From Tubiluchus corallicola (taxonomy: Eukaryota; Animalia; Priapulida): 64,000 nt of DNA. Both the position numbers and the translations under genes were made by a program. The notes beneath the pieces are model-generated. The model worked only from the letters and a program-made list of their open reading frames with translations, searched no databases and was not told the DNA's origin. The DNA lies in contig JAQGDQ010000172.1 in NCBI GenBank assembly GCA_030141605.1, positions 1 through 64,000 on the forward strand, written 5' to 3'. Shown in pieces: positions 1-61,183 of the stretch; the first letter of the stretch is position 1, and each line of letters starts with the position of its first letter.

Positions 1-83
1 TTCTCAGGGAGCAACGTAACTGAACGAAGTACATCATTGAAGTTACGTATTGCTCTATACCCAATTTGCCCAGTGCTACAATT

Positions 84-200
84 TCCCTGTACCAAAAATT
101 ACTAGTAGCAAATTTTCCCGTTACCAAAATTTCTTCATACCAAAATTCAGGGCCGAATTTACCTGTACCAAACTTATTACATGTAGTACCAAACTTACTG
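84..200. repeat. Degenerate ~15-20 bp minisatellite (TACCAAAMTTAC core)
   Basis: About six imperfect TACCAAA copies; explains the spurious ORFs at 50-365. Confidence 0.6.
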
Positions 201-662
201 CGCACCGGGCTGCTACATCAACTTGTTACCTTAACTCACTTGAACCAGTCAGAAAATAGTATTGTTGATTTTATTCACCACCACACCCAACAACAAACAA
301 ACACACAAACCAAAGTCTCTCCCTTTCTCTCTCTTACATTTAATTTACATACATATAAACCTTAATTAATTATAATTTAATATCAATGTTATTATCAATG
401 ATGGTACAAAATCACAATTTGGTTTTAAAATTCTGTTAGTTGCAGGTTTGAACCATCATATTAGTTTTGCGCTTAGCAGTTGTCCTGCCATAGTTCATTT
501 AGCATATTTAACTTTGTAGATACTTTAGGCAAGGGCATTTTACTGTACTGTACTGTGTTCTGTTTGTATAGTGTCCTACTATGTTCTTTGTGTTTTGCAT
601 TGGTATGAAAAAGCATAATCATTGTCTTAGTTGTCTATTTACTTTGTTTGCATGTGTTTCAG

Positions 663-756
663 GGTTTATTAATATTTGAGGTGTGCTGGCCGCTTGCTGT
701 TTTTCTTATCGTCTGGATTATTAGAAGACAAATACCTCCTGTTCCCAAGCCAAATT
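663..756 (+). CDS. ABCA exon N1: TM1 (GLLIFEVCWPLAVFLIVWIIRRQIPPVPKPN)
   Basis: tttcag|...|gtaagt, 94 nt, phase 0-1; resembles ABCA1 LLEVAWPLFIFLILISVR. Confidence 0.95.
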
Positions 757-3700: not shown

Positions 3701-6700
3701 AGTGATGCTGGCTTCAGATTCTAATGCTTTTTTCGTTAGCTAGTTTAGTATGCGGAAAAGGGGGCGTATATGTTAGCGAGGTTATTTATATGCCGCACCA
3801 TCAGTTCATCACACACGATGTTATATTATGTCTCAACGGCATTATTAAATTATAGTTTACTGTTCTGTATTAGTGTAAAACCTACTACCCCGTATACGTT
3901 TACATGAATGTCATATATTTGAAAGTTAGGTCTATATGTAACAAGAAGGGTTGTAACACAGTAAAAAAGGGGAGCTAGATATAGATAATGTATAAGAATT
4001 TCGAGAAACTACCTATGACATTGCGTCTTGCAAGCTTAAGCAATAAAAACAAAATTAAGAAAGAAGACAACGACAAAACATTGCCCGAATTATAACAGTA
4101 CTAACTTGAGCAAATTTACCGTATTGAATAGTAATTTATTTATAGCATTCAAACTGTTTTGAGTGCAAACCACACTAATTAATATAACGTAATAGTAACA
4201 CCAAAACCAACAAGTAAATGAATGGTAACAAATGCAAACTTGATCAATCGAAATATCAGTTTTGTCTTCACAAACAGTGTTGGCATTTTAAACAGTCATT
4301 TTTCTCTTAAACGTAAATCCCCTGCGCAAAAGTATATTTTTAAATTTCACAAAACACGAAAGAAACCTTGGCTGGCCACGCATTCTTTGCAATAATTTTT
4401 TTATTTTTTATTGAAAATATTGGCACTGGTTGCACATTTTTATGAAATTTTAGAAGATTTTAAAATTATATTTTTTATAAAATTTTATAAAAATGCTTAC
4501 AGAAAAGGATGCACGCGTGCTCTTGCTGACTGTTGCAAGAAAATACAAGTTAGTGCACTACACGAAGTGTTCTTATAATTATTATTAATTCTTATCAGTT
4601 ATTTACAATTCCCCCTAAACAAGATGATAATACTGTACTATAATAGGACCCAGTGGGTTTGTGAATTGCTACCAAGCATTGTAACCCCGTTGTAGGTCCA
4701 GCAGTTGAACAATTCGCCTATAATCAAGTTAGATAGTTCTGACCTAGTTAAGCTGGTAAAAGAGAAAACTCTCTTATGGCCGCTGGGCTTTTTTCGCACA
4801 ACAATTTCTTTGATTGAAATACAGGTGCTGTGTATTTTACCTGTCCCGGAGGCTTATACCGTAAGTATTTAACGTAGGCCTGTCTGTCAGTTTATAGCAT
4901 TCGTCCAGGATATTGGCGAGATTTAGAAATATTTTTGTTATTGTCAAAATTTTAAATAATGTTGCTTGATTTTTTCTGGAATTGCTCGACTTTTTAATTG
5001 TTTTTTACTTCTATGTCCCGGTTTTGTTTGTTATTTGTTGTTTCTTTTTTCATGTTTTGTTAACGCTTTCGCAAAGATAATAAAACAGTGCAAAATAAAA
5101 TTAGCGTAATGTTTTTCAGCTTCGTCGCTGTTGATTGAGGTCATAGTTCCCAAATACACTGTGCACGATTCGTTGTAGTTGCCATTTATATTGTGTTTCA
5201 GCCAATCGACACTGACGATATTAATTATTAGTATTAGTCCATTTTGGTCTTATTCCCACTATGATTTCCACGCAGTCACGTTTGCGATGTTACCTCGACG
5301 CCGTTAGGAATTTAGGATATTATTAAAAAAGTAAATTTGATTGTAACGTGGTCTATCTTGTTAAGTCAAAATCTTCTTGAGTACAAATGGACCTCGTGAA
5401 GATTTGTGCTACTAGGAATGCCTAAGACTAAAGTAAATACATGCTGCTAAGAATTAACGAAACTAGTTGCAGCCTTACTGAAAAAAAATGTTTTTATAGA
5501 ACCTTAAACTAGTCGACCTAGTTCTAGATTGATCGCTGCTTATTTAATAATAATACTTAATAGTTAGTAAACCTTTCTTTAAACTTTTGTTTCCGAAAAC
5601 GCGGTTGCTTATTTAATCTCGTAGTGAAATTATGTTATTCACTGTTTCTTCTCATTTTTCGTAATAGTATATATAAATGCAGAACTCTGAGTGAAAAAAA
5701 TCTAGTTATTTTACTGTTCGATGGGTTACATACACGTAGTCAGATTACAAAATAATGTGAATTCTTGGTTCAGATATTTTTTATCTCTTTATCCTTACAG
5801 CTGCTTTTGCTTCCATCAAAGTAAGACTTAAGGTGTTCGATATATTGAGCCTATTTTTATCTTGTATCTACAAATCTAAATTGAATTATCTATTTATTTA
5901 GAGCATTTTGATATCATTGTAACTTCTAAATTATTTTATAAACAGGCTACTTCAATGCTACATGCATTGTTATACAAAAACATCACTTAATATGATGCGT
6001 ATGTTTGATAGTTTACTTTCTAAAAAAGACTCTGTAAATTCTTCAGCGTCTTCGTGTGCATCCAGCCATGATCACTGATTATCATTCTTTTGATTTGTTC
6101 AGGTGAATATGATGCAAGGGCTTTACCAAGTGCTGGTGTGTTGCCATTTCTTCAGTCCATGGTATGTTCACTGGACAATGAGTGCAGGTCACCCGATTAT
6201 GAGGCATCAAAATCGCCACCGGTGTAAGAGTTTTTATCAGTTAATTGTTCTTTTCTAATTTGACATCGTTTTTGATTTACAAGTTGCAACTACAGAATAT
6301 ATTCTACATGAATACGCCAATGCCATGTTCAATATGCTGTGAACAGTAATGTCAGTATGTTGTACGTTACGGATGAAATGATTGGGATCCATCTCAAATT
6401 CACTGTTTAAAAAGAGAGCAGGGCTTGTCCATGTTTGAGGAGTTGGTCACAAACGACACGTGGTTAACGTACGACATACATAACTGGTATAATGTCACTA
6501 TGTCGCAGCATTTTGTCGCTGTACAACTGCATATCCTGCTAGGGCACTGCCAGTCTGAATTTCAATAAATTTAACAATAAAACTCGTATAGTATTGTTTG
6601 GTGCTAGGGAACGAGAAAAATAGCGCGGCAACACATGCAGTCTCCTTGCTCGTCAATACCATGAGCGACTCGTTTTATAATGGGTAACGGAATGGTGTAA

Positions 6701-9700
6701 ATCCTGTTAGTTGTGAGTCCTTACTACCAGGGTTGTACCAAATACCAATGGTCGGGTTCGTGAACTATGAACTATGAATTTATTTTCACACATCAAAATA
6801 CAATATCATACACGTTAATAAACTTTAAATAAAATGATTTGAGTAGTAAATGACGTAATAATAGCAATGGTATAAGAGCAATAAACCTGAAAGTTGAGAA
6901 AGGAAAACATAATATGTAATTACGACTTTGAGTGAGCCTTAAAGAGTGAAAAAATTTTTTTTAAATAGTTACGAATATGAATTATGTGATTATCTGTCAA
7001 TGTACCACTTACTTGTATTACAATGCACCATATTGCTTACTTGTATATACAATGATATATATATATATATATATACTCAAATTTAAGTGGGGGAGAAGAG
7101 ATTAAATTATACATTATACTTGTAATAATAACTGTAATTGTATAGAACATTTAAATATAATTGATGGTAGTAATGTAGCCATCATAGCCATTAAAGATTG
7201 GCTATGGTGAGGGAGGGGGGCAAATTATAAGAATATTAGTGATTCATTCGCAATTAATGTTACAATAATACATTCAAAATTTTTCGTATCACTGGTATTA
7301 GCTGGTTATAAGCTAAGAGCATTTTCCTAGTGGAAACAGATATAGGCTGCGATGAATGAATAATTTCATTTTAATTGATTTATACCTTTCATTAAAAAGT
7401 CGTAAAGATACCTATTAGTAAAAGAAAAACATTAGTGCAAAAAGACACACGTGCACAAAAAAGAGAAAGAACCTCTTAGGTATTTCGGATTTCTTAGTCT
7501 CTTGAACGTCCTTAGCTTGGGAACCTACTATAAAAAATATATATATATTTATAGTAGGGTCCCGAGCTAAGGAAGTTCAAGAAGTTCAAGAGTTATATAT
7601 ATATATTGTATGAGGTCGAAGCTAACAACCTTTAACAAAGCGCGTCCCAAGATTAACAGTTTTACTTTTTGGCAGTCACATGTGTTACTAATTATCGGTT
7701 TTCTAATTACTTCAAAATTCTTCGATTTTTCACTTGACTGTTTTGAAGAATTTCGACTACAATCTCGGTGGTAATATCGAACTTTCGTTAACTGGTAGTG
7801 CCGTCAGAGGTACTTTTTTAAGTTTAAGTTTTTTTTTTCTTGTTTAGCGCCCAGCAACTGGTTTCGCGGTTGGCACCCTACATGAATGACCCGGAAATAA
7901 AACATGCATTGGAAAGCGTGCCGGAAACGCTAGACATAATTGACGCAGTGACATTGCCATTTAAAAATAAGAACATCAAAGATTTAATCGGTAAGTGTGG
8001 CAACAGAGCCTTTGCAACAGATGAGGCAAAATGCTAATATAAACTTCTGAGACTTAGTTTTTTGCTATGCAGATTTTAGTAGTGCTAAGGAAATTTTGCT
8101 ATATGACAAAGTCGTGGGCTTCTGAACAAAAATAAGATTCTCCAATGATCAGTGCATTGCAAATGTATAATTAAGAACTTACGTAACAACATTTTTCTTA
8201 TATATATGAACAAACTGTAATGCAAAAGTAATATCTTTTTGACGTTCTTATTCCAATTTTCCTATCGTATAACATGGTATGACCAACTTATTAGACTTCG
8301 CAGACCATATTGGTATGCTTATAACATTTGCTAGTAGTGCACTATTTCTTTTGTATCATTCGTTATAGTTTGATATTAACATAACTCAACTTAAAAAAGG
8401 GACGGAATGTCAATACGATATGTGAAATGTTAGTAAACTTAGTTTTGACATGCAGAAAATGGTCTCACAATTGGAGATCTGTTTAAGAATCAAGAGGAGC
8501 TTGTGCCTTACCTGAGTGAGGAGGAAAATATCTTACCTGAAAATGTGACCAAAACTCTTCTGCAATCTAGGATTAATATGGATGAGGTAAGCGGCTCACT
8601 ACTTTAAGTATTCTGAGTTTGACTGACCAGTTGTAAGGTTGTTTATTGCCCGTAGTGCTTGGTTTACTTGCTGATGAAGGTGATGGTTGGTTAGTCATTC
8701 AGTTGTAAAGCTGGTTTTGCTTACCTGTTTAGTTTACTTGACCAATCATTTCAGCGCTCAAGGATAATGTAAATTGAACTTGATCAGTCATTTCAGCACT
8801 CAAGAATAATGTTCGTCAAGAATTGAACTAGGGGTTACATGCCTGATGAAATTTGCAGTATGAGATCCGAGTATTTTTTGTTGAAAGTTTGTTTCTGATA
8901 GATAGACCTTCAAGAAGTTTAAATATCTGGAACGAAATATATATCTATACATATATATATATGTATAGATATGTAAATTTTTTTACTAAAAATTTCTAAA
9001 AATTTCAGTTAGTTTTAAGGGATGCATAATCCACAACATATTAAAAACTAAATTCATTTTCTTATGCCTTTTTACAGACCTTTTTGAACAGTAACACAAA
9101 TTTTATTTGCCTTTGCTGTTAAGTTTAGCCGCAGTGCGCAATGCACGTGCTACTTTCGTTTTCTTTCTAGGTTGTTGACTTTTCGTGGGTAGTGGTCCTT
9201 TTTGCCTTCTATAATAACGTTTTACAGCATACATCATATTTTTCGTCATCATCACCATAATCATAATCAGCAACAGCATCTGCATTATCGTTATTAGCTG
9301 TCTTAGTGTCTTGTTGTCCTCAATCATCATCATCGTCATCATCACCATCACTATCATCGTTATCACCATCATCACTATCACCAGTGTTATTATTGCAATC
9401 GTCGTCGTTATCTACATCATCTTCGTTGTCATCAAAAATATCATAATTATAACGATCTGTGTTTTTTCAATAACATATTATAAATCTCTTGGTTATTCTT
9501 ATGCTTTATAGCTAAGGTAGCATATGACAGATTGCAGAATGAATTGACAGCTGTTATGTGATTTTGCAAATAATGACACTGTTATTAAATTTTCCTATTT
9601 TCCCAAAAAGTCACGACCGACTGTCCTATTCTTTCATGCTACGAAATGTTTGCACTTATTATTATTAGTGCAGTAAAATGACTTTTGTTAAACTGCGCTA

Positions 9701-12700
9701 GTCGCAATCAGAAATAGAAACATATTGTGAATCGATCAATACTAACAAATCGTTTATAGGACGAATTGTTTACTAGATTGAATGACAATGTTGGCGCAGT
9801 TACATTGCCTTGGACTGTTTCTGCAAACGGCTATGTTGTTACATAGTTAAAACTGACAAAGAGGGGACAATATAGGAATGGGATTCACGTTCAGTTACTT
9901 GTAATTAGCAAATGATCATGGCGTTATGGTAATTAGGGTAGATTGTGAAGCCAATTAACGGAATTTGTTGGCATAAGTGTAATGTGTCTAGGAAAGTTGT
10001 ACGTATTGCTAACATTTATTGATTTTTAATGATGTTTTTGCACTGGGCCGTTTGTTCGACCTTGAATTATGTCTAAAATCTAAGCTAATGCCTCAGGGGT
10101 TACTACACGCCGGTTCACATTAATCTCATCGTGTTTATTTAATAAAGCAAAAAGGCGCGAGTTCGGTGTAATACCTGACTGACAGTGCATGTGCTGTAGC
10201 TAATTCAGTCATCATGATGTTTATTGTTGAGGGCTGTTTTTTTCCCATCATATTTTTCGCTTGAGGGTTGGATGCAGAGTTCCGTCACTCAGTTTTTACT
10301 CTTCATTTGCGCCATGTACAAGCAAATTATAAGCTAATGGTGTTGGTCGTTTGGAAGAACCAACTTCCTACAGTTGAGCATTAATCAATCACAAACTTTT
10401 ACCAATATATGAATATTTGAATCCAGGTAAAAAGTCACAGATAAAAAAGTCGCAAAAAAGTTACAGGAAAAAAGGCAATGAGAAAAACGAATAACCCTAA
10501 CCTTATTCCTAACCCCAACCATACCGCTGTTTGGTGGCTGTTTATTGCCATCACATGTAAGCAGTGAATTTACTGGTGATTTTACTTTTCTTTTAGTTGC
10601 GTTTGCTATTTTTGTTTCATACTGTTTTTGGGCGCTAGCATCTAGGCCTAACGATGTTATCTGTTGGTTGATGGTTTATTGCAGCTTGGGAAATACACTC
10701 TATTAAGTAAAAGCTTGTAATAACCCCTGTCTAACGTCGTTAAGTTTAGGTCATAAGTCATTTGAAGGTTTATATTAAAGGCACACATACAAGATAGCAG
10801 GTATCGTAGTTGTTAGAAAAAAACATCAGTAGCCACCTTAGTTGTGTCTAACAAACCATAAATAAATAAAATTCAAATCATCAAAATGATTTGGTAAAGT
10901 GAATGAAAATCATCAAAATTAGTTACAGCGCGTTTTCTGTCGCGAGTTTTCGTCTGTCAGCGAGCTGCTTTGCGAGTTACTGTCAACAAGAAAGTAGAAT
11001 CTCCAACAGTTGCTACGAGTCGATTTACTGCCTAGTGTGAAAGCTTGGCGAGTTACCGTTGACACTTCTCACAAAAGTGAGTGTCAGCTCGCAATTAACT
11101 GTCGGAAAGTAACTCGCAACTTGGGTTACATGGCAAGATTACAACGCGAGAAAGCTCGCTAGTCTGAACCCACCGTAAGGGAAAACGATTTGGCGCACTA
11201 TATTTTTGAGCATTTATTATTATTTTTTGACTCACGTACTCAATTCCATTTCATTAGAAACTTGTGCTGTATGCATGTTCCCTTTGTTCGCCAATGTTGT
11301 ACCATAGCTGAAATGCATTTTTTGAAGGTGTAGGCTAGCCTAAAAGTAACCACTGATTGACAAATCATCTGAATTTCGATCAGTGGTATTCTCTTGTTTA
11401 CCTGACAATTGGTAATGTCTATTATTTGGGCTCACTGGGTCTGTAAGTTAGTTTTCGATTCCACGAAATCAATGGCTATCAGAAAGGATACTTTTCTTTT
11501 TCAGATGTTTTCCTCCTCAGGTTATGTTGACTTCAAGGGTGTGGCCTGCAACGAGTCAGCTCTTCAAGAGTATCTGATACTGTCGCCAGGGGAAGCAACG
11601 GAAGAAGAAGTGTCCAAGGCCTTGTGTGCATTGGATAGTGATCACATTCCTGTACTTGTGGAGGCAGTGCAACAGCATTTAGATGTGGAAAAAATTTTCG
11701 ATGTTGTTAGTTGATATTCATAATTGGATTTATTTTGAAATTAGGTGGCCTTAACTGTTTCCAATTAGAATAGGAATTACCGTCAAATACACAACAATGC
11801 GAAGCAGCCCAAAGACTGTTCATTTATCTGTAAAACTTTGATTTAAATTTTGCTTTTCAAACATAAAAAAAATTGTTGGTCTTGTACTTGTTAATATAAA
11901 AATTGCATCTAGAGTGTAGCTATGTAAAATCACACCGTAAAGCAGAAATATTGAAAAACTTAACGAAAGATATCAAGGAAATTGAGAAAATAAACTGCAG
12001 CGAAGCAGACATTGGGGTTATAGTCCAACAAAATAATTTTTCAGTGCAAGTTTTTGATTATTACAAGTAGAAATAGTGCTACTGAGCTAGGCAATAATTA
12101 GTTAGTTAAGTGTACCTATCAAACTGCATGTTTCTTCAAAAATTAGTTTTGTTCCAATCAACACATTATAGGATCTTTTCTGCTCATTAATTATTTTCAT
12201 CTTCAGTGCAATTATGTAATGGGCTAATGTGGGTGCCTCTACTCCACTGAGAAGTTTTACGTCCTGTACATAAAGAAACTCTGCAAAGTACCAACAGTAT
12301 AGCTAATCTCTAAGTTTAATTAAACGTAAGAGTGCCCATTGGCTGTTTTTCTATTTTCTTTGCCGGTTGTGAATATGTGATGGAACGTGCAATTTGTCTT
12401 TTAGGTGTCATCGTTTTCAAGTGCAGTTGGCGAGTACGATTTAGCTGTAGCAATGCAGGACATTGGGGCCATGCTGGACATGGCTCGAAACTTTTCATTG
12501 ACCAGCTCGCACTCAAACTTTATTCCATACATCGATGACCTAAACGACTGGACAAAACACTTTCAAATGTTTACGGATAGTTTACAAACCACTAGCGTTG
12601 ATTTCACTTTGTATGTTTGCCCAAATGTTTAGTTACATTTATTATATATATTATAAATAATTAAAAGTGAAGTTTTTCAAATATTATTTTGGTGGCATGC

Positions 12701-15700
12701 ATGGCATTGCTGTCCGTTGTTCAGGCAAAACTTCCTGGTTCTGACTTTCTTCTAATGAAAGACAAGAAGATAAGTAAAATGATTACTTTCTCATAACTAG
12801 TATAACTTGATTTAACTACATCTACATTTAAAAACTTGTGTAACTTTGGATATTTACACTTTTTCAGCATTGACACTTTTCTGAATGACTTAGATCCTAT
12901 GCTTCAAGATAACCCCAAATGGAATGAACTAAAAAGAAATTACCTTTTCTTCAACAGTATGCTTGAGACAGCTAATAGAGACTTGGGAAGTGCACCAGGT
13001 ACATTAAAGCACTTAGGTCTAATTAACTGTCACACAGAGCTGGATAAGGCATAAACCGTGAGAAGAAAGAGCTCATGTAAGATAAACGTATGCTAGCCAA
13101 TGGTCCTTGTCACACAGATAATCCATTTGCCATGACCACCTGCTGAACCCTTTTTTTCGAGCCGCTTTGTGCACATCATAAGGTGCATTTATTGCTAAAT
13201 GAATTTAGCCATTAATTTTATTTGCTGTTAGGTATCTTTGATCATCACCAATTTGATAATTAGTGTATTTGAGCTTTTTACAGTACACAATTTATTTATA
13301 TCATAAGAATTCATAGCACAGTGGTCTCCCAAACATGAATAAGCAATTTTTTAAGCATGACATTTTACCAATACTGCAGCTATTATGATTTTCATAATGA
13401 AACAGTTCTTTAAAAGAAATGTGTTATTCTTTAATGAGCAAAATTACTCAAATATGCATGAATAAAATTTGCAATTAAAATGAATGTTTGACAACGAGCC
13501 ATTCTATACAATTATTTTAAACATATTATTTACCACTACATGTGAACATGAAATAGAACTATTACTGATAGGTTGATTAACTGATATGATTGTCTAACTA
13601 ACTGACAGACATATTAACTTCCTTGTTGACTGCATGCCTACAAGCTGTTTGTTTGGTTGACTAACTGCTAAGCAAAGCAATGAACAAGCCAGTCAGTTAT
13701 TCAGTCTGTTAGTTAGTCACTCTATTAAACAGTCAATTATTGTTCAAAAGTGTGGTATGCTATTCCATTCTTGTTTTATTGTTACCAGAATACATCATCC
13801 TTGTTAGTTCACCAGTAAATTTCTCTCGAGTCACTTCTACCCATTTATGGAGCTTGAGCGTTAACTCAACTTGTTTCACTTCTTATACCCAGAAAGTGAT
13901 CTTTTACCTACTGAATGGGCTCTTTTTTTCAATCTTGACTGCAACAGGAAATCGCAAATATAGCACATTTTTATATATTTTAATTTTATTAAGTGGTAAA
14001 ATATGTTTTTCAGATGTGAACATTACATTTTGGGAAGTTTTCAAAGATCCAGTTTTCGTGCAAGAGGAATTGGCGCAACTCTACAACCTGAGCGAAAGCA
14101 TTATTTCTACGCTTCTAAGAAGTCGCTTAAATCCAAGTTTCATTCGTAAAGCTACTGCCATTCGCAACAATGTACCTGATGAAGAAATTTTGGCATATAT
14201 TTGTCAAAATTTCGTCTCGATGTTTTATGTCATTCCGTCAAATGAAATTGATTTACGGAATATACTGGCCTTACGAGATGCCATCTGCAAAGACGCCAAA
14301 TCATTTCAAACTCAAATACAAGAACAACTTGATTATAGTGAAATAGATACACTTATTCAGCAATATGTGAGTAAATATGAACTTGTTATACTATAAAATG
14401 GGGTGAATAGGCACAGTGGAGTGAGTAGGGACAAAACCCGAGAAAAGTTATTAAAGCTCCTACTATACTGCACGAATAATCAATGTGCAGTTCATTATAA
14501 TTTTATTATCTGACTGATACATGTCAGCCAAGCATGGTTATCTACCAAAGACATTATGTCATTGTGAAGTCAGTCCTGATTGCCATGGCAGCCGTAAACC
14601 CAAGGCATATTAATAGGCAAAAAAAGTAATGGTAGTCTAAACTTTTATTGCACATGCTTAATCAGTAAGCCAGATGTGGTTATTTTGTAGCTGGCAGTTG
14701 AGTGACTTATCTTCAGTAATACCTCACCATTTTTTCCAGTTTGAGTCATTCTTCCTTTTTGTGAATTTTTGAGCAGTTTTAGACTTGGTTTGATAAAAAT
14801 AATGGGGTGAATGGGGACAACATGCATGCACATATAAATGACTCCCTGCTGGAGCATAATACGAGAAAGCAATGCCAAGAACAACACATTGCTATGAGCA
14901 AATTGTGGGAGCAAATTAGTGAATTTAGATGTTTGATGTTACCTAGGCGCAATGCTATCTAACCAAGCTTTGTAAATTTATCCTAGATGTCAAAGTGACT
15001 GAGTTTAAGACATGTTTTTACAAAACCTAAGTTGTGTCCCTTTTCACCTCATGTAATGCAAGATGGGTACACAAACGGAAAATAAGGCTGTCCCTATTCA
15101 TCCTAAAGTATGGGGCTGAAAGAGATACCAGTTTTTAAATAAAAAACAATGTACAATTTTTTTAATTATAACAATACATTCAAAAGATGGATTATGCAAG
15201 TGGCTATATAACTACCAAACACAATTTAGAATAAAAACTAGCAGAAGAATTACAGCAGTTTGAATGCAAAAACTGTCCCTATTCACCCCATTTTGCAGTA
15301 CTAATTTTTAACTACTTTAATTGAAATAAGTAAAAAGCCCGGAGAAATCTCCTCCATTGGCATGAAAAACACAAATAAGATTGTTTTCTTGTTGTTCATT
15401 GTAAGGCAAAAGATGTCCCAGTTTTAGAGAATTTAATTATATTATATTCATGCTGAAACAAAATAATTTGTGCACAGAATTGGGAGATATGTGAACTATG
15501 CGTAAACATACAGCACATTTGAATTTCTGTCCTATATTTTGAGGTCATTATTAAAAAAGACATTTTTTTCATTGGTTTTCCCATTGTTTTAATTGTAATT
15601 GGTAGCTTTGTGGCTTACTGTCTGACCTTTGATAGATGCCTATATTTATAACATGAAAAAATCAGTTGTTTAGTTTATGAGGTAAACAAATTCCTGCTCT

Positions 15701-18700
15701 GTCTGAATTTTTACTGTGTATTTCTTTTTGTTTAGCTTGACAATGCAAACAAAACGATTGCTAACGAGCGTATCAATTGGACACATGCGTTTGTTAATGC
15801 TCAACAGTTATTGAAGACTTTAACAAATTTCAGTGATGAATATGGTGAACTGATAGAAACACTTGCACAAATTAGTGTCACCGAAATGGTGCAAACGTTG
15901 GTAAACTCCTATGTGCACCAGACAACTAAGTATGTAAATTGTAGAAATCTATCTGAATGGGCTTAATTAATTAATTGCTTGACTTTAGATGTTAATCACC
16001 ATTATATGGTGGACCAGTTTTAAAAGTGAAAAGGTAGACATGCACATCAGGTACCGTGTTATTTGCAATATAAGATGAATGGTTCCTCGTTTTGCAGGCT
16101 AAGATTAAGAAAAAGCTTTAGGCTTCAGTTAGGCTTGCCATTAGTACATTTTCATATTATAAGTGCAGTAAAAAAGGTGTAACCTGCAATGACTTTTACG
16201 TTCAACATATAATATGTTGGCTGTTTTTAGAATGGACTTTGCTGGAAATAGGAGTGCCTTACATCCAAAAATTTTCCAAAAAATATGGTTTAGCTTCATA
16301 TAAGCAAAGTTTGAATTCAAATGTATCTGTATAATAATAATAATAATAATAATAATTGATTTGAAGAAACCAAAAAAACTTGAAATTTGGTTTTGAGATT
16401 TTATTATGTGTCTACATAATCAGCAAAGTAGTGTCACGTTGAAAAGCAGAAAACCAAGTGACCAAAACTACTGGTGAAATCACATAGGTGTGACAACAGG
16501 TTTAGAGATTATGCATTCATAAAGACTGTAGAAGCCAATGAAAATTTAAACAGTAAAGAGAAAGATTTAAGAATTTTAACAAGAGTACCTGAAGGTGGCA
16601 GCAAAATTCAAAAAAGTATGATGAAAATACAACATAAAATTTAAATTTAGAATAATTAAAATGATTTTTCTTCTGTCCAATAATAATAATAATAATAATA
16701 ATTAAAAATAATAATAATAGCAATATTAATAATAATAATAAATTATTACTAATCCACGAGGTATTACTTGTTCATTACTGATAAAAAACTTGTCTCAAGG
16801 TTAGAATTTTGATGGTCAGGCACTATATTAATTTTATGGTCATAACTCATTATTCATAGCATCTCCAAAATTTCATATAAACAATGTCGATGAATGTAAT
16901 TATTAATTTGTTAAGCATGAATCTGTTGTTGTTAACCTCTGTAAAGCATTTTGCATTCTGTTTTCTCGCCTTACACAATGCGCACATCTACAAACCACAG
17001 TGTTGCAAACTGGGGGCTTCAAATTTGTTGGCACGTGATGTGTGTAGTGACGTAGTTGTAAAGCACTTAACCACAAAACTTGTGCGCGCCTTTAAAAATC
17101 GCTTCCGAGTACAAAAAAGAAGTTCACAGGCTATAGTTTACTGCAGTCATTGAAATATTTGGCCAAAATACTAAAACAAAAAATTAATCGTGTTATCGAA
17201 TTACAAGAACAAGTTTGTAATCTAATTACAAAATTTCAAAATCGCCGATCACTAGCCACTATGCCAGTTAATGTATTAAGGTTCATTTTCTAATGGTAGC
17301 TATGATTATAGATTTGTATAGGATGTTTAACTGTGTATGTACAGTCACACATGTTTTCATTTATTTGTTTCAGTGATGAGGCTATCACTCATTATGCGCA
17401 GCTTGTTCTAGAAGCTTATTTAGGCAAGGATCATGCACTGTTGACAATTGATAAAGTAGACTTAGCAATACAAATTTTACAGAGTATTGTTGACAAAAGA
17501 AATGGTAAGAGTCATTTTGAATAAATTGATATGCAGTAGGCGCTGCTTAATAGACTCACAGTTAATAGACTCAATCGCTTAATTGACTCAAAAACACCTG
17601 GAATGGGCCGCTTCTATTCAAATACACAAAAACTGTCAGTAATTGACTCAAGTAACTCCTCATAATTGACTCAATATTTTTCTTTCACCTACTTAAAATA
17701 AGATATTTGTATGTGCCTTTCCTACTTTTATGTGAGCTTTACTTCTTTTTTATGCACTATATATGGAGAAACAATCATGTTAAGTACCGTTTTGTTTATG
17801 AGCAGGTACATTTATCGTGCACTAATACGGTAGAGTAGCGGTTTTGCATTGAATCTGTTACCCGCTCGCCCAGTGTTACCCAAAGAATTTCTGGAAGCTA
17901 AGCATTTAATCACTTGCCTAGTGGTTTCCTTTTGATGCTCTCGTTGCAAATCACGCTTTCGGGCTTAATGAGTTAACAGTCAAAGATGCAGGTACAGTAA
18001 TCAGCTGGTATTCCTTGTGACTTACAAGAGTAAACATCGTACTGCAAATAAGGGCAATGTAAGTGAGCAGACGATTTAGAACTATTTTAGTCACACACAA
18101 CAACAGATTTTCAATGTTTCGCAAGAAAATGAAGCAGCAGACTTTGAAGGAATTTTTGTAATTTCTGCAAATAAACAGACTTGTGTGATTTCGAAAAGTA
18201 TACTTTTTAATTTATTGCTAATTCACTTATATAAATTAATAATTTAAAATATTTTTTTAAATTTTTAACTGCACAAAAGAATTTAGGCATTACTTCGTTT
18301 CTAAAATTCATTAAAAACCTTTGCAGTGCATAGTAAACTGATACATCTGTACCTATAATACTACACCCATCGGTTAATAGGTTCAGTTGGTTAATTGGGT
18401 CAAAACACGTCGGTCCCACGTGAGTCTATTAAGTGGGGTTTACTGTATTGGTATTAAGTGTGATGGATTCGATGAATTACAGTCAGTTATGCAATTACGG
18501 CGAGCTCGACAGTTTGGTCACTTTTTTATGTAGTTTTTTAATTTTCAAGTATTTTTTGTTTGTAAGTTAACTGGTGTGTTAAATTGTCAACTTTTTTGCA
18601 TATATGTTTTTTAGCTGTCTGCTTAAAATTCTTTATCGTCCAATGTTTCTTTAATATAATACACTCATTTATACTATGTAAACAAATGAACAAACTGTGG

Positions 18701-21700
18701 TTGTTGCAGTAAATCTGATGTATTTCTTGTTTAAATTTGTTCAATATTTCGACATACTGCACATTGTAATTTTTGGCTTTATATTTTTGAAGGGGACATA
18801 ATGTTGAAATATTGGATAAATTTAAACAAAACAAAAAATGCACCAGATTTACTGCAACAAGCGAGGTTTTTTCATGTGTTTACATAGTATAATTCAGTAT
18901 GAAAACTGCAGAACCTTTCCAACTAGTTAAAGCGTTAATACACTCATCATTCATGAACTGATCTCATTGTTCGGTTTTTTGCACGTGAACAAGCGTTGTT
19001 TTTTTGAATTTATTCTGTTGCATTCAGATTCCGCTTCTCAAATTTGAATGCTGCTGTGTGTACAAACTTCTTTGTTTTTATAGTATTATTCCAACTGTTA
19101 TTATTTTTATAATTTAAGTTTGTTGATATAATGCAACAAATGTTGGAAAACTGACACTAAACTGTCTGATAGGTATTTACAACTTGTATATTGCATAATA
19201 TAAGCAATATTTTGATGCTAAACACATTTGTTAGATAGAATCCAGAACCATTAGCTAAACAGCAAAACGTTACTATTAATTTTTTTTTACTAAGTTATTT
19301 TTCTAGTTATGCTTTCTTTATAGGTTGAAATCTTTGTCATTTTGCATAGCGGTTTTTACTTAAGTAACACATTCACATTTTTTAGCTTTATTGGCCAATT
19401 GGTTAGAAATATTTCACAGCGTTTCCAATTACGAGGCTGCAAAGAATGCCATGCAGATTGTCACTGATCCGGAGAACTTAGCGGTAATAACTAATTTAAT
19501 ATTTTATAAATAAAATTGTCTATGTCTTTCGGATTGTGTGCTCAGCTTTTCAGGAAACTAACTAGTGCATGACAGATTAATTATCTAACTCTTGATGCAA
19601 CATTATATCTTTATAATTCAACTATGTAACCTTGAAATACTGGACTCTTATCTTGGCTGGTTCCTTTACTTGTTACTTTAGCCCACTTGACCGACTCATG
19701 TTGTTCTTCTGGACAAGTTTGATTCAATATCAATACTGCAATCTCTTGCTTGCCAAAAATCAGCTACTAGGTTGAGCCATTTTAACTCTTTTTAATGAAA
19801 GATGGTCTCAAAATTTTCCAGAGTTTAGCAAGAGATTGTATACCAAATGCTGATAGTTTGCTTCATTCGTGGTTCATTTGCTTCTTTGGATACCAATGTT
19901 GGATACCAAATGCTGATAGTTTGCTTCGTTTGTGATTCATTTATTTCTTTGGATACTAAGTACCAACATTAGAGTACTTGTTTTGCTGGGCATTGTTTTT
20001 ATGTTTACCATGGGCATTCCCACATGCAGAACACTTGCTTGTAACTTCGATTTTTCTCAGGCCTCTTATCAGTGAAGTTCTTTATCGTGAAATTTGTTTT
20101 CCTCTTCAAAATGAACTTACAAACTCACTCTTTTCAAAAAAAGAACACCACTTGTTAACTGGCATATTGGTTGGAAGAATTCTGTTTTATAGGCCTTTCA
20201 GGATTTCAGATTTTCGTCTGATGCCCTTAGGCCACTGACATTGTTTAGGAAGCACTCTGTAGTAAAAAAGTTTTGGCATGAATCTGAATTTTTTGTATTT
20301 TGTTTACAAAGTTTTACTTTCTTAATTGAGATCAAGCTGCTATGATACATGTTATGAAATTACCCATAAAACATTGTTTAAATGCTGTATGATAGCTAAC
20401 ACTTTGTTTTCTTTATCCGTTGTACTGAGATAGCATGAGTTGATAGTTTTTTAATTTTTTAGATTCTGCTGAAGAAAAAAGATGAACCTGAAGACATCTT
20501 GTGTTCTGAAGTTATGGTATCCTCGTTGCTTAATAAGACTGACATTGATCAAGCTATTATGGACATTACCTGTAACCAATTGTACCTGGATTATGTATCT
20601 TCTTTGCTTGATAACAGTATTATAACTGAATCGGTTAGTGCCCTTCTTTTTTATTTGTTTATTTATTCCATTTATTTGTACATAAGAATTACAGTCAATA
20701 CAAATTATGAAATATAACAAGATAATAAGAAAAGAGAAAACTATAGGACAAATTAATGGGAGCTCAGCAGTTATCTTTGCTCTGATGGGTATTCTTGTCG
20801 GCTACTGTACAGGTCATGTGTGCTAGAAGTGTTGATGTAATTTTTTTTAAATGAATTTTAAGTGCATTGAGTGAATAAGCTTGTGTTACCATCATTCTTT
20901 TATAGAGCAATGAACTTGCTGTGTGCATAAGATTTTTTGTATGATACAGATTGCTGCTTATATCAAATGCAAACTCAAACTTTGAACATAATTAAGGATT
21001 AGTTTTGGTTGTCTTGCTGAAAGTCTTAATATTCTTCAACTGTAAAATATTTGCATTTTAATACTGGTAATGTTTCAGTTTCAAAGGTTGATCTCTTCTG
21101 ACTTGAACTTCACTGATTATGGTGAATATATACCATTTTCTGATTTACATGGCATCGTCTTGAAAGTAGAAAACCTGCTTGCATCATTTGACAGCTATTC
21201 ACCATTCTTTGTCTATTATCATGAGGCAGAATCAAACTACAATTCAAGGATTTATTCAAAAGCTGTATCTGCTTACGACTTTTCACAGTAAGAGTTCTTA
21301 GTTCTTTTATTAGCAATATGTGATCTAGCTATTGTATTAAGTTGCTAAGATGTGGTGTTAGAGCTATATGTAGTATTATTTTTCACATGTGCAGTGTCCA
21401 AAATTATTTGCTTGTATAATTACAAAACCTACTGTGTGTGGAAGTTTTTGTGTAATATTAATTATTTCTTGTAAATTTACAGTATGAGTGTGGCAACATT
21501 AGAACTTGGACCTATTGCAGAAAACAATAGTGATGTTTGGGCTGTAGCAGGACCACTCATGGATATTTTTAAAGATGTAGTTCTTGTGATTAGAACACAT
21601 ATGAGTAATTATAAAGGTGGGCAAATGATCAAATGGAAAAGTTTCTAAATTATATTACTAACTGATACATTAGGTGCCGCTTAATAGACTCACTTTGGGA

Positions 21701-24700
21701 TGGAGGTGTTTCGGCCCAATTAACTGACTTATATAATTAGTCATGGGTGTAGCCTATTAGTACTATAGAAGTATGAGTCATGACTCATCCCCTTAGTAAA
21801 TAAAGTGTTTTATTTTAAGTACGTGAAGGAAAATATTGAGTCAATTATGCTGAGTTGTTTGAGTCAATTACCAGTTGTTTATGAGTTAATTAAGCGACTG
21901 ATTCTATTAACCATGAGTCTAGTAAACAGTGCCTGCTGCATATGCATAAAATAATTAAATAAGTTCCTTGCAGCATACGTTAGTAATGTGTCTGTAAAAT
22001 GGCCTTTTGTTAAAACATTTTTACATTTTCTCAATAGGTCAGAAGGAGTATTTTGAAGAATTAGTGATGTCTGGCGACGGCGCTGAAATTGTTCGAAATT
22101 CTTTAGAAATGCTGATTGACCCAAAAAAGGTTTGAGCTTCATTATAATACTTGATTTTACAAGGAGTTTTGGCGCTATTACACTTTCACACCGCCTAGCT
22201 TTTTCTAGGTTATTGCTCGTTTCTAGGCTCGTACGTCATCATTCTATTATTCTTACGTCATCAGTGAATGTTTCCGCTAATCTAATTGTAATTTAATCAT
22301 ATATTTAGGTATAATTACCAATAATTACGCTGTATTCACAGTTCTACACCTATACAGGGCGTATCGCCATCTTGTTTGTGTGTGTAGTCACGTGACGAAT
22401 TTCGTAATAGTTTATGCATTATCAGGGCCTAGCTTAAAAGCACGTGACACACTTTCATCTTCACCGCATTTACGAAATAAAGAAAAAACCTTTACTTTTT
22501 TTATAATCTAATAGTAATAATACTACAGTAATAAATAAATTTAATGATAAATAACTGTAGTCGTCTAAAATAATTTCCCGCGATACGATACAAACTCCCG
22601 TTGCTGCAACCCTAATAATCATAAATTATGCGAAGAAACTAAAAATACATGTTAAGGGCCACATCGTCACTGCGCGAGAGCGATTGCGCATTAGTGGTGT
22701 AAACACAGTTATGCACGTGGAGCTTTTTGCATAATGGCGGCGATAAGTAATGTATGATTTTAATCTGGAATTATAAAGCGTAAAAAGCAATAATATTATG
22801 GGAATATGGTGTATATTACGCCTGTTGGTCTGCTTTCTGGCCTGCAGGCGTGAAAAGAACCAATAGGCCAGGAAAAGCTAGGCGGTGCGAAAGTGTAATA
22901 GCGCCGGAGTTTTTAACAAATGAGTAAAATGTGTATTGTTACGCTACTGAAGTTAACTCCAGATAAATAGTGAATGGACATTAATGCAGAATGTTTTGAC
23001 AAATGTTTGTTCAAATGTCGATTCATTTCATATTTAACATATACGTTATAGTGCAGCATTATTTAAATTAAAGTTGAATAGCTAAAACACTTTTCCTAAT
23101 TTGTGTAGGCTAAATTACTGGAGCAGCGGCTCAGTTTTACTAACCCGGAGTATGTGCTGTGTGACAGTCTGGTTCTAGACCATGATCTTAAGATGGATCT
23201 TTCATCAGTACGAAAGTTTTTCTGTGATCCAGCATATAGTTATAAATATTATTACTTGTCAAGTGAGCAGGCAATGGAAAGATTGTCTGAAAAGGTAAAA
23301 ACACACACACACACATATATATATTACAGTTGCTATTTCATTTCAAGTATTTCAAATAAGAAAAAAGTTGTCTCTTTAACTAGATATTCTCAATTTTGTG
23401 TTTGTCGATTTCTGTTGGAAATTTTTCGTTTTAAGAATTCTAAAAATGGGTCTGTATTATTGGACATAATGCATTGCTGTCTTTTTCTAGACCGTGTAGT
23501 TGCTGTTCGCAGATTCAAGGTACTAAGAGTTCATGAAAAACTCCAATCTTCTAAACAAAGATTGAGTAGTAGTTTGTTTTTAGTGATGTTTAGTGGTTGA
23601 TAGAGTGAATGACAGTTTTTTCTGCAATCTAGTGTATATTTTGCAATAATTTTGCTTGCAATTACAGCCTAAGTTTGTGTGTTATTCATAAATTTCCATT
23701 TGGTTGGTGCTGCTGTATATTCACATTGATGTTTACAAAATCAGTTTAGTGTGCGGTAAGTCAGTTATAATCTATCTTTCCTTTTCAGTTGAGTAATTTG
23801 GAAGTTTGGAATAATGCACAATTGAATGAGTCTTTTGATTGGGTTGGTTTGCTTTCTAATCTACATCGTACATTGACCATTCTTGTGGATTTGCTGCATG
23901 ACGATGATTTTGGTATTTATGATTGGTCCGTTAGTGATGATGTAGACAAAATTGTGCTTCACTGGATGGATAGGTTGACAAATGCGAGTACAGCATGGGA
24001 AAGGTGACAAAATTATTATGTTTTTTTGCAGTTATTACAAGGGTTGTCATTTTGCTTTTGTTTTAAGTAATAGCAACTCAGTAATAGGGTAAGTACAAAT
24101 ATACCACAGTAACATAAAAAATTCAAAAAGTAAAATAGTAGATCATAATGTGCACAATGATTAAATAGTCTGAAAAATGCCTGCACATGATCAGGTCATA
24201 TGAATTCATTAGTCACTAGTGATCTTGCTAATAAGAATAAAATTAAAATAAGAGTTTTCTTTAAACAACATAGATTTCGGAAAATTTTTTATTAAAAACA
24301 CCATTGTCAGTGATAAATCTAAAGTTATATAATAGGAAGAAAATTAGAATAAAAAGTAAATTTTCTGCACACAGCTGTCAGCATAAAACAAGAGAGTATC
24401 AAAATGCATTAAAGTGCCGACTTACTAATCTAATACTTTTGTGTTTTACTGTTACAGTTGGTTAAAGTTTCATAGAGAAATAAAGGTTATAAAAACCGCA
24501 ATGCAGCTATGTGTATAAAGTAAATTGACTACTGATCTATTTAATTATTGCCTAATTCAAATTCAAATTCAGTTTATTTCACCAGCAGACAAGCAAACTA
24601 AAATAATACAAATACATGTACAATTTTTCTGTGTAATTGAACAACAACAAAAAATTTCTGACTCCCTAAACATACTATATTAAAGTGTTCAATTTTCCTG

Positions 24701-27700
24701 CATGGTAGCTAATAAAGGGGACCTTGTTAAGCCACCACGGAATGTGAAGTAAAGAATGAAGATGATAAGAGAAGAGGAGATAAAGAAGAGCTATGGTGCA
24801 GTTAGTAGAAAGAAAATGGAAAGAAAGAAGTAAAAAAAATAAGAAAACAATCACCATGTTCAGATTAGCTGCAAATGATTTTTGACAAACCCTCGGTGGA
24901 TGCTATATGACTGATACGAATCACCAGGCAAATAAATTGTTCACTATTAGACATAGGACAGAAATATTTGATGTTTCTGAGATTTTTTAAAAATACAAAT
25001 TTTTGTCTTATTAGTTTTTGTCTTTTAGAATTGGTGATGACACTGTTCTTCTACTGCAAGAAGTTGATAATGCACTTAAAGGATTACGAGAATGGGAAGA
25101 CGTAAAACGTGAGATCATACGCTTTCAATTTTTGTCAGACCATGCAAACAAAGTTTATCGCAATTATTTAGGTTAGTATCCAAAGCATCTTTAAATTTAT
25201 ATAATGGATTAATGAGATGTTTCATTTGTTTAAATTATTAGCATAAATTGTACTTTTTAAAGAGTGATTTGCCTGATGACCAAATTACCTTATTCATACT
25301 GTGTAACATAACATTTAAAGATGTGGACACACTCATTTCAGTTTTGTTAGTTTTAAAACTGGCACTTCATTTTCAATTATTAAAAAATATCATATACAAC
25401 TAGAAGGGCAGTGTTTTGTAATGTGATAATTAATTGATAGTGTGCCATAAGTTCTTTTTTTTATTTTTACAGATCCTGCTTTTGATAATGTGGTAGCAAA
25501 TAGTGCAACACTTTCCGATATAATTCAGGAGTTTGCAAATTTATCAGCATCTGTTGCCCAACAAGCTTTCTGGTCTGTATTTATCTCTCCCAAGCCAATT
25601 TTAGCTGCTCTAGAACCACAGTCTTATAGTAATTTGTGCACCAATGCAAGTTTGAAGGATGTGTTTGAATTTGACAACAGAGACACCGCTGCACAAGAGT
25701 TGACTCAAAAGCTGTGTGAGCACATCTCAGAGATTAGAGAAGAGCTTTTTGGAAATGAAACTATGCAGGAATACTATAAACTGGTATCGTTTTTGGAATT
25801 ATGTCTTACTTTAAAAGGAATTATTGTCTATATTTTTAAATATTCCCGTATCTTATATACATGTATGTGATAGAAACTATCTAGATTCTAAATTCATTTA
25901 CCAGATTCTAAATTCATTTGCTACATTGAAAAACACCATCCATTACTTGGCTTATCTTTAATGGCTGAAGTCAATGCAAAATACAGAGCTGGCACATGTA
26001 TGGCAGATTCTTTTACTAACTTCTACACAGTTAGTTTGTTAGTACCACTTTTGTGTTAACTATTAGAATGCGCTTGTGTTTTGTTTAACACCAACTTATA
26101 TAACCTAATAACATGTATGCAATGTGTACATATGCCACACAGTACAGATTAGAGACTTGATTGACTGCTAGTTTTCTTTAGAACCTTTAGTCATTCTATT
26201 TCTATTGTGATAATTTAATACATTTATCTGTCTCATTTATATCATGAATATGGAAATAAATGCACATTTTGAATTTGAATCTGAATTTAGTCGAGGTTTA
26301 TTGGCTCTGATTGCTAATTGGCTAAGTGAAGATATGAAAAGCTATGAATTGCAAAATTTTTGCAGCCTTTAACAAAAAATGCAGGAGTTTCCAATCCTGT
26401 GCATTACCATGTTATTCTTTGCCCTAGTTCAGTAATTCTGTTAAAAGAGCCATGTTATATAACTTTAAGAACTAAAACTACATATGTGTGTACTGATTTT
26501 TTTATGTTCTGTTTAAATAGCAGAATAACTTTTCTTTCGCTATATTAGTTGGATGGTACTCTTAATACCACGTTCGTGAAAGTCAATTGGACAAGTGTTG
26601 TTAAGAGCATAACTGAGTACTCTGACTATTCCGACATGGGTAATTCTGTTCAAAAGCTGTTGCAGTTTCTTTCTAAGGTATTTGCAAGATTTTTTTTGTG
26701 ATGAAACTATAGATTAGTTGCCATTATCAAATCAGAAGAGAAGAAACATTCCATTCAGAAACTTTGGCTTGGAAAAAACAAATTAAAATTCAACAGGCAT
26801 TTTTCCAAAGTAAACCTATTTGTGACGTTGTCAACACTTGAATGCTGTCACACTTATTCCAGATTTGTTAAACTGAATAACTCATACATTTGCCAGGGTT
26901 TTTTTTGAACTTTTTCATTAATTATTAATTTCAAATATTTTGCAGATAGTTGCAACTGCAGCTGCTTCTATTCTTAAGCAAATCAAACTTACTAACGATT
27001 TTTTTCATGTTTTTAGGTTAACACATCGATTTTGAGAGAGGCTGTTCAACAGTATGACCTTTACTATCAGCCAGTTAAATCAGAGTAAGTACTTAACATT
27101 TTGTATGTAATAACATATACATGTATCTGACATTTTATAGATTAGAAGTATGTGTAAACATTTATATTGCATCATTAGTTAACAACAGTAAAAAATATTT
27201 AGTTTTAATTACGTAAATTGGTCATATTCATAGTAATTTTATGGTATCAGTAGTATTTTTTGTAGTGCACAGAATTGTCAGAAAAAATATAATTACCTGT
27301 CTTATAGCAGCTGGTATTCTTTGCAGTCCATATCACTAGCTAACAAAGATTCAAAGCACTGATATTTGATAAGCTGTAGACATGCATTTATGTAGTGATG
27401 ATCCATTTTCATTTGCGTCATTAGTTACCGAATTGTGGCATTTGTCTCTTCATTATTATTTATGCTCAATTTTTCATAATTTTAGGGATTTGCTGAAACG
27501 ACTAGATGAGATTATTCCTAACGTAGCAAAACATTTTCAATCCGTGAATAGGACGAATCAAGTTTACGACTATGCTAAACTGGCTAGTCGCAGTCTTGCT
27601 GTGCTTGTGCATGTAATGAATGAAAAGCTAAATGATCTAATAGGTAATACCGCACGTAATAGAAATGTTATTAAAATTATTTCTGTGCAGAATGCATTTT

Positions 27701-60700: not shown

Positions 60701-61183
60701 CAGTTAGCTCTATCTTCTGTAAATGGATGAAATATCTTGCATTTCAAGATGATGATAATGATAATGATGATGATGGTAATGGTGATGATGGTGATGACTA
60801 CGGCGATCAACGATGAGGATGATGATACTGGCAGTGATGATGACACTTTTTCTGAAGTAACTTTTGGTGCTTTCTGTCTACGAGACAACATTGTAGCAAT
60901 AATAGCGTTACGTCTAATTCGTTTTTGTTTTCAGATATATGAACTGTATCGGCCAGATGCAAACCTAACTGTGAACTGGTTAGAATTTTTCAAACACCAA
61001 GAGGAATATCAGCTAGCACTTGCTAATGTTGTTAGAGAATCAACCAGAATGAAAATGAAATCATTTGAAGAATATGTTGATTTTGGAGGCTTTGACAGGT
61101 TCTTAAAAAGCCTGGGCGAACAACTGATGAATGACAGCAATCCCGAAAAGTATGTACTGCATATGTTTCAAAAAGCACTTATG

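Follow-up and report, generated by a model that had tools for sequence, protein, structure and literature searches.

Tandem lid modules in the predicted front part of a giant ABCA transporter gene of Tubiluchus corallicola

Introduction

The exon boundaries of the transporter ABCA4 are given as c.66, 160, 302, 442, 570, 768 and 858 in the sections of PMC7544654 and PMC5749174 that list them. Residues ~138-271 of ABCA4, in the lid of the first extracellular domain (ECD1), are unresolved or homology-built in the cryo-electron microscopy (cryo-EM) models, according to the structural passages of bioRxiv 10.64898/2026.06.25.734683 and PMC8219669. The former, in its passages on variants, places many Stargardt variants of unknown effect in the ABCA lid. 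The window analysed here is a 64,000 nt stretch of Tubiluchus corallicola (assembly GCA_030141605.1, contig JAQGDQ010000172.1, positions 1-64,000). It probably represents the front of a gene for a giant ABCA lipid transporter that likely belongs to the ABCA12/13 lineage. At least 16 tandem copies of the lid unit are predicted, which would form glycosylated lid-and-stalk lobes adding lipid-holding capacity and reach.

ABCA12 is the human skin-barrier transporter. The ectodomains of ABCA12 and ABCA13 are called abnormally large, and left unexplained, in the pertinent part of a 2026 review (PMC13161189), and the long N-terminal region of ABCA13 is described without homology or conserved domains in the corresponding passages of PMC7948424. 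The arthropod genes tetur27g01890 and CG34120 form the sister clade of ABCA12 and ABCA13 in PMC3724490, whose description of this clade leaves repeats unmentioned. No published description of the ABCA lid repeat was found, most subscription journals and bioRxiv supplements being beyond the reach of the search.

Gene properties

The gene model predicted by a splice-site scan consists of 64 exons on the + strand between positions 663 and 63457, all with GT-AG borders, and its exon chain holds 3,531 codons with zero stops. An exon of 94 nt for the first transmembrane segment (TM1; phases 0-1) and one of 121 nt with the PSAG motif (1-2) are followed by 16 modules of about 220 amino acids, in which exons D, A, B and C cycle through the phases 2-1, 1-0, 0-0 and 0-2. 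The features are as follows.

663..756, + strand: TM1 exon, 94 nt, 0-1, equivalent of ABCA4 exon 2 (tblastn E 2e-5)
6103..6223, + strand: PSAG-motif exon, 121 nt, 1-2, equivalent of ABCA4 exon 3 (E 3e-8)
7848..7990, + strand: module 1 exon D, 2-1, counterpart of ABCA4 exon 4, predicted entering tunnel helix
8456..8586, + strand: module 1 exon A, 1-0, counterpart of ABCA4 exon 5, predicted first half of the lid
11505..11705, + strand: module 1 exon B, 0-0, counterpart of ABCA4 exon 6, cysteine pair equal to C205/C230
12405..12610, + strand: module 1 exon C, 0-2, starting where ABCA4 has its exon 6/7 intron, likely return helix and linker
12868..15929, + strand: module 2, D 12868-12998 (2-1), fused A+B 14014-14366, C 15736-15929 (profile E 1e-21)
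17374..21287, + strand: module 3, 4 exons with a short A, the most diverged (profile E 9e-4, shuffles not beaten)
21483..24003, + strand: module 4, 4 exons with a short A, D donor at 21604 or 21616 (profile E 2e-8)
25029..27084, + strand: module 5, D, fused A+B 25473-25783, C as 26549-26677 (0-0) plus 27017-27084 (0-2)
27486..41576, + strand: modules 6-9, 16 exons, younger block, repeat at the DNA level, 25-51% protein identity
42271..50430, + strand: modules 10-12, 12 exons, B10 donor uncertain
51493..58232, + strand: modules 13-14, 8 exons, mutual identity 35%
58635..61149, + strand: module 15, 4 exons (profile E 3e-31)
61405..63457, + strand: module 16, D-A-B only, cut by the window end, A16 the least supported exon

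An initial annotation of this DNA had described module 1 as three ancient exons with phases 2-1, 1-0 and 0-0, closed by a 0-2 exon into a phase-symmetric cassette. The peptides that it quoted are encoded on the + strand at 8461, 11532 and 11616, and the phases and the symmetry are borne out by the 64-exon model, in which each of the 15 complete modules is a multiple of 3 nt and encodes 203-241 amino acids. Departures from the four-exon layout are the fusion of A and B in modules 2 and 5 and the split C in module 5. Intron phases recur at lag 4 in 55 of 58 positions (mean 20.7 and maximum 35 in 20,000 shuffles), a count that is partly circular, the exons having been chosen with the pattern in mind. 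For an independent check, a profile made solely from internal modules of other species was searched against the 1,506 six-frame open stretches of the window at E<1. It matched 42 stretches, covering 42 of the 62 module exons; without exception they belong to the + strand, coincide with predicted exons and match the profile in the part where they should. At E<=2e-8, 14 of the 16 window modules match the external internal-module profile, and in leave-one-out profile tests all but module 3 scored above every reported shuffle.

Outside the young blocks listed above (modules 6-9 and 13-14), which mark younger duplications, the modules share only about 7-22% identity. All 16 B parts nevertheless carry two invariant cysteines, and these make up 32 of the 36 cysteines of the model. 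The predicted protein (3,531 residues in the model) holds 80 N-glycosylation sequons, about 5 per module, and no second hydrophobic segment as strong as TM1. The window shows the order that characterises the ABCA subfamily, in which TM1 precedes a large ECD1 carrying the PSAG/cysteine motif; the best PDB matches of the PSAG exon (6103-6223) are all ABCA4, ABCA7 or ABCA1, at residues 57-85 (E 0.009-0.03). No start-exon motif was found in window positions 1-660, the start exon lying upstream of the window; the N-terminal xLxxKN motif of the subfamily is present in the homologues, and the window model begins after the start exon. Single window exons gave no significant match in Pfam, PDB sequences or the ESM Atlas, and no Pfam family covers the module, either in the giant relatives described below or in the window exons.

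Relationship to the ABCA4 lid

ABCA4 introns were placed on frog ABCA4, which has identical numbering, and those at c.442, 570 and 768 fall at positions 62, 103 and 167 of the module profile. The D/A, A/B and B/C introns of the window stand exactly at these positions in 8 of 16, 6 of 14 and 11 of 16 modules, and at most 4 positions away in 13 of 16, 13 of 14 and 14 of 16, with identical phases (1, 0, 0). These positions support the correspondence of D, A and B to ABCA4 exons 4, 5 and 6, as had been proposed for three ancient exons. The ABCA4 exon facts given with that proposal agree with the boundaries listed in the two sources cited above (PMC7544654, PMC5749174), and its ABCA4 peptides stand in the PDB alignment.

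Profile comparisons point the same way. A two-module profile from 14 other species, searched against PDB, aligned with ABCA4 residues 109-291 at E 1.7e-6, with both cysteines matched, and ABCA4 was the sole natural PDB protein below E 0.5. An hhalign comparison of 162 strictly internal modules with 16 single-copy ABCA proteins gave 97.7% over ABCA4 129-265, so that the similarity to ECD1 residues ~100-260, at first read from module 1, holds for internal modules as well. With exons alone the values were 79.9% for A and 94.1% for B (reversed controls <=5%). As a second profile and the window's own exon profiles did not find ABCA4 (see below), the similarity between module and ABCA4 lid sits close to the detection limit.

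Structure searches gave no ABCA match. Foldseek comparisons of single- and two-module models with PDB gave no match at E<=0.001 and no ABCA chain, the single-module model had no match at E<=0.001 among viral models, and VIA-align returned generic helical matches (best Z 6.1) with no ABCA chain listed. Since ABCA4 residues ~138-271 are poorly resolved by cryo-EM, the missing ABCA fold match is not evidence that the folds differ.

Exon C had been taken for a phase-restoring addition to the three ancient exons. This description suits its phase-2 end, which appears to be new; the exon as a whole is not just a patch, as it starts at the ancestral ABCA4 exon 6/7 intron position and carries a conserved helix. 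The C exons of the window map to ~165-239 of the cross-species profile and are conserved across phyla, and the two-module alignment takes in ABCA4 exon 7 as far as residue 291, C being collinear with ABCA4 257-291. Of the 16 C exons, 11 have a helix-start motif at residue 9-16, compared with 2 of 48 other exons; the motif was defined after the data had been seen, and its ABCA4 counterpart is I268-N269, at residue 12 of exon 7. In 9 of the 16 single-copy proteins, which are mutually related, the real segment after B outscored 95 or more of its 100 shuffles. It is likely that C derives its 5' part from the return helix of exon 7 and that only the phase-2 end is new. The extra phase-0 intron in C of module 5 (26549-27084) lies ~12 positions past the expected end of ABCA4 exon 7.

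This derivation is opposed by several results, and the apparent homology of C to exon 7 is weak. In hhalign, C alone gave <=3.3% when compared with the single-copy proteins and <=0.6% when compared with last modules, neither significant; among the last modules of giants, only 7 of 28 had a segment after B that outscored 95 or more of 100 shuffles; and the shuffle results could come from generic amphipathic helices. Only D-A-B might then be ancestral, with C an unrelated, newly recruited phase-restoring exon whose helix converged on the amphipathic look of exon 7. Such recruitment would account for the lack of a significant match, for the wide range of C lengths (170-227 nt) with variation also in the 3' halves, and for the absence of a phase-2 intron there in ABCA4. 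It is nonetheless doubtful: C opens exactly at the ancestral intron, the two-module alignment runs on to residue 291, the post hoc motif is concentrated in C, and, as a matter of logic, a 0-2 exon cannot precede a phase-0 exon in a single-copy gene, so that C and the first duplication arose in one step. For a C derived from exon 7, this step could have been an in-frame crossover or a new donor site, for example.

Phylogeny and distribution

Two word-index homologue searches found nothing, unlike a full HMMER scan with the B profile, which gave 86 proteins topped by giants with up to 26 matches each. The 20 proteins that were looked up belong to hemichordates, echinoderms, annelids, molluscs, a nemertean, a flatworm, a horseshoe crab, a mantis shrimp and a millipede, with group names assigned from the species names. 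Further relatives were taken from a core search (best 120 of 1,139). Among 141 proteins longer than 2,000 amino acids, 60 invertebrate ones carry 3-27 modules (reversed-sequence control peak 7 bits), with 27 in XP_070556625.1 of Ptychodera, 23 in Lineus, 21 in Liolophura, 18-21 in Octopus and 11 in Tachypleus. Full-length giants have the ABCA core domains together with a pair of nucleotide-binding domains (NBDs; e.g. P0004, P0006, P0018), and transcript-scale Logan contigs encode relatives of 5,155-6,516 amino acids. Five named cnidarian proteins hold, among the matches listed, one unit in two pieces. The repeat cassette is, from these profile matches, common to many bilaterian invertebrate groups and not a local accident; an origin of the cassette in this lineage alone was rejected on the 3-27 such modules of bilaterian invertebrate giants. 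Neighbouring modules in other species are up to 97% identical (92-97%), and some of these may be assembly duplicates. No one-to-one correspondence of modules between phyla was found beyond module 1, which points to continuing module turnover.

A core tree was built on the first transmembrane domain (TMD1) and NBD1 from 32 of 50 rows and 614 columns, 18 rows having been dropped as redundant, fused or coreless; ABCA13 and ABCA7 were not part of it. In this tree a branch with support 100/99 (LG+G4 and LG+C20) separates 11 giants together with 2 ABCA12 sequences from the remaining rows. The window N-terminus falls with 14 giants (98/99), every one of which scores higher than any of the 13 other proteins. 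Linked to the giants in this way, the window gene likely belongs to the ABCA12/13 lineage.

In ABCA12 the last module is recognisable in the cobra protein (66-74%, reversed controls <=0.4%), ~1,650 residues after the PSAG motif. The cobra insert contains 4 cysteine pairs at module spacing (p 0.004) and that of the squirrel 2 (p 0.06). Upstream segments of ABCA12 gave no significant match to the module profile (<=7 bits), and self-BLAST of cobra ABCA12 ECD1 revealed no internal repeat. Human ABCA12 numbering transfers to the squirrel protein at 15 of 16 residues. Boundaries at c.985, 1061, 1287, 1782 and 2332 are found in the exon data of PMC6503032 and PMC11069050, to which the boundaries available from PMC10048568 add only c.70 for the ABCA12 region. 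The introns at c.985 (phase 1), c.1061 (phase 2), c.1287 (phase 0, before a cysteine pair) and c.1782 (phase 0, at about the A/B position) fit the module cycle, as does the boundary at c.2332. Presumed further boundaries at c.693, 872, 1180, 1544 and 1657, which published tables only bracket and for which a literature search yielded no paper, would complete three turns; the decisive phase-2 boundaries among them would be c.872 and c.1544. The repeated-lid layout is likely left in eroded form in human ABCA12. We give a somewhat better than even chance to the wider proposition that the human ABCA12 and ABCA13 ectodomains descend from arrays of the ABCA1/ABCA4 lid-and-stalk that have since eroded, the phase-symmetric four-exon cassette having been made by one duplication in a bilaterian ancestor, ABCA12 exons 4-15 representing three turns of the cycle, with up to 27 lipid-holding lobes in invertebrates.

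Some further observations concern individual relatives. In cobra ABCA12 (P0136), residues ~560-720 and ~1150-1330 have similarly placed cysteine pairs, which BLAST did not link; both segments lie in the cobra insert, which is ~1,100 residues longer than that of the squirrel. Two shorter A-B copies (~120-130 amino acids) are present in the hemichordate and sea-urchin ABCA1-like proteins P0195, P0208, P0210, P0213 and P0229; P0195 and P0208 fall outside the giant clade, apparently as an independent lid duplication. After module 2 of giants, a C-type lectin domain is inserted in Saccoglossus (P0008/P0095, residues 660-757) and a WAP domain in Anneissia (P0007, residues 532-571), and many other giants have a gap in module matches at this place. 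A precomputed PF00088 match is found in P0223, P0169, P0178, P0161 and P0167 (three named cnidarian and two further ABCA1-like proteins), P0223 having a cysteine-rich insert in ECD1. The Bulinus protein P0129 (5,259 amino acids) has an NBD between two module arrays and is probably a fused model of tandem paralogues.

Predicted structure and function

The single-module model (predicted local distance difference test score 82, predicted template modelling score (pTM) 0.66) has its best structural matches in helical hairpins and bundles, with ~60-90 residues aligned across model residues 15-185. Its two long helices are those of D and C, and the matches span both together, which suggests that the two pair. 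The exon-7 helix of ABCA4 begins with N269, and in the modelling passages of bioRxiv 10.64898/2026.06.25.734683 this residue is modelled as touching E128 in the exon-4 helix; the predicted D-C pairing may resemble this contact.

The proposed history would begin with one early in-frame duplication, likely before the protostome-deuterostome split, that started near the exon 3/4 border and ended within exon 7 or shortly beyond it. It would have created exon C, with the old phase-0 acceptor and return helix and a new phase-2 end. The four-exon unit is phase-symmetric, and copies could therefore be gained and lost freely. That phase symmetry permitted the amplification is a reasonable reading; it accounts for copying being tolerated, not for copies being kept. 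In each copy, an entering helix would lead into a helical lid pinned by a disulfide, and a return helix would then pair with the entering helix. In the reading that we favour, such lipid-binding lobes would make up a glycosylated chain, in a lumen or outside the cell, and would give an otherwise ordinary ABCA pump more holding capacity and reach, rather than forming one rigid telescoped tunnel.

A number of results weigh against this reading. The transporter core falls beyond the window end, and the window is a predicted front part. Exon D alone gave <=0.5% with hhalign against the proposed ancestral region, which is not significant; a second profile, A5 (30 rows, mostly molluscan, single-module), had no ABCA4 match in PDB sequences; and the window's own exon profiles A1 and A2 gave only chance matches in PDB, none to ABCA4. 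In the core tree ABCA12 is a long branch, and ABCA13 and ABCA7 are absent. The two-module model has a pTM of 0.40 and was built from 14 sequences only. Lipid binding by the modules and their geometry as lobes or tunnel are predicted.

On that geometry, the modules might instead stack as a continuous hydrophobic conduit, in which lipid would leave the pump and travel tens of nanometres to reach a remote acceptor. The tunnel of ABCA1/4 holds lipid-like densities, according to the relevant passages of PMC8219669, and module length is tightly kept (203-241 amino acids). Each module appears self-closed in the model, however, copy number ranges over 3-27, and the two-module model has no confident relative orientation, the last being weak evidence; a conduit seems improbable. 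About equally unlikely is an array that has lost lipid handling and acts as a spacer bearing glycans, as a signal for trafficking or as a scaffold for binding. Mouse ABCA13 requires its long N-terminal region for vesicle localisation, as stated in the localisation passages of PMC7948424, and the low identity of the modules with ~5 sequons each would suit a spacer. Against a spacer, all 16 modules, and those of other phyla too, preserve the cysteine pair, the helix pattern and the hydrophobic positions, a conservation that fits a conserved fold without proving lipid binding. An artefact of exon picking or assembly is extremely improbable: exon choice was guided by the pattern in a gene model predicted from DNA alone, and the near-identical neighbours in other species may be assembly duplicates, yet the window modules are diverged rather than copies, the frame is open over 3,531 codons, all 42 independent matches fall on predicted exons and the Logan contigs encode relatives of 5,155-6,516 amino acids, so that assembly artefact was rejected.

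In the ABCA1/ABCA4 structures no part is less well resolved than the lid, and the lid-and-stalk would here be identified as a separately foldable, repeatable unit, with hundreds of natural module copies for alignment and small constructs for structural and lipid-binding work. The array also provides a testable model for the ABCA12/13 ectodomains and a clear case of an exon cassette growing and shrinking, from 3 to 27 copies, across animal phyla.

Other features of the window

Inverted-repeat pairs resembling small non-autonomous transposons lie in introns at 22171-22905, 41935-43110, 1876-2462, 14389-15300, 18663-18898 and 7500-7582. An Rfam search of the window gave 0 matches.

Comparison with known systems

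With ABCA4/ABCA1 the window gene shares the 94-nt TM1 exon, the PSAG exon, the positions and phases of exons 4-6, the C205/C230 pair and profile similarity from about ABCA4 109/129 to 265/291. It differs in having at least 16 lid units where those proteins have one, in its exon C, which is 0-2 whereas ABCA4 exon 7 is 0-0, and in the core tree, where ABCA4/ABCA1 stand on a separate branch from the giants.

ABCA12 is the sister of the giants by TMD1 and NBD1 (100/99) and has a long insert that separates the PSAG motif from a recognisable last module, whereas the segments upstream of that module lack a significant module-profile match. ABCA13 resembles the window gene in its very long ECD1 and shares with ABCA12 the arthropod sister relation reported in the clade description of PMC3724490; it differs in that its ectodomain lies partly in one 4.8-kb exon, going by the title of a reference cited in PMC7948424.

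The invertebrate giants have the identical module type at the identical place in ECD1 and share a clade with the window N-terminus, but are annotated as uncharacterised or as ABCA1/12-like. Phase-symmetric exon-module arrays in general likewise arise by tandem amplification of a symmetric cassette; theirs is a mobile single-exon domain, whereas the cassette described here would consist of four exons cut from the transporter's own ectodomain.

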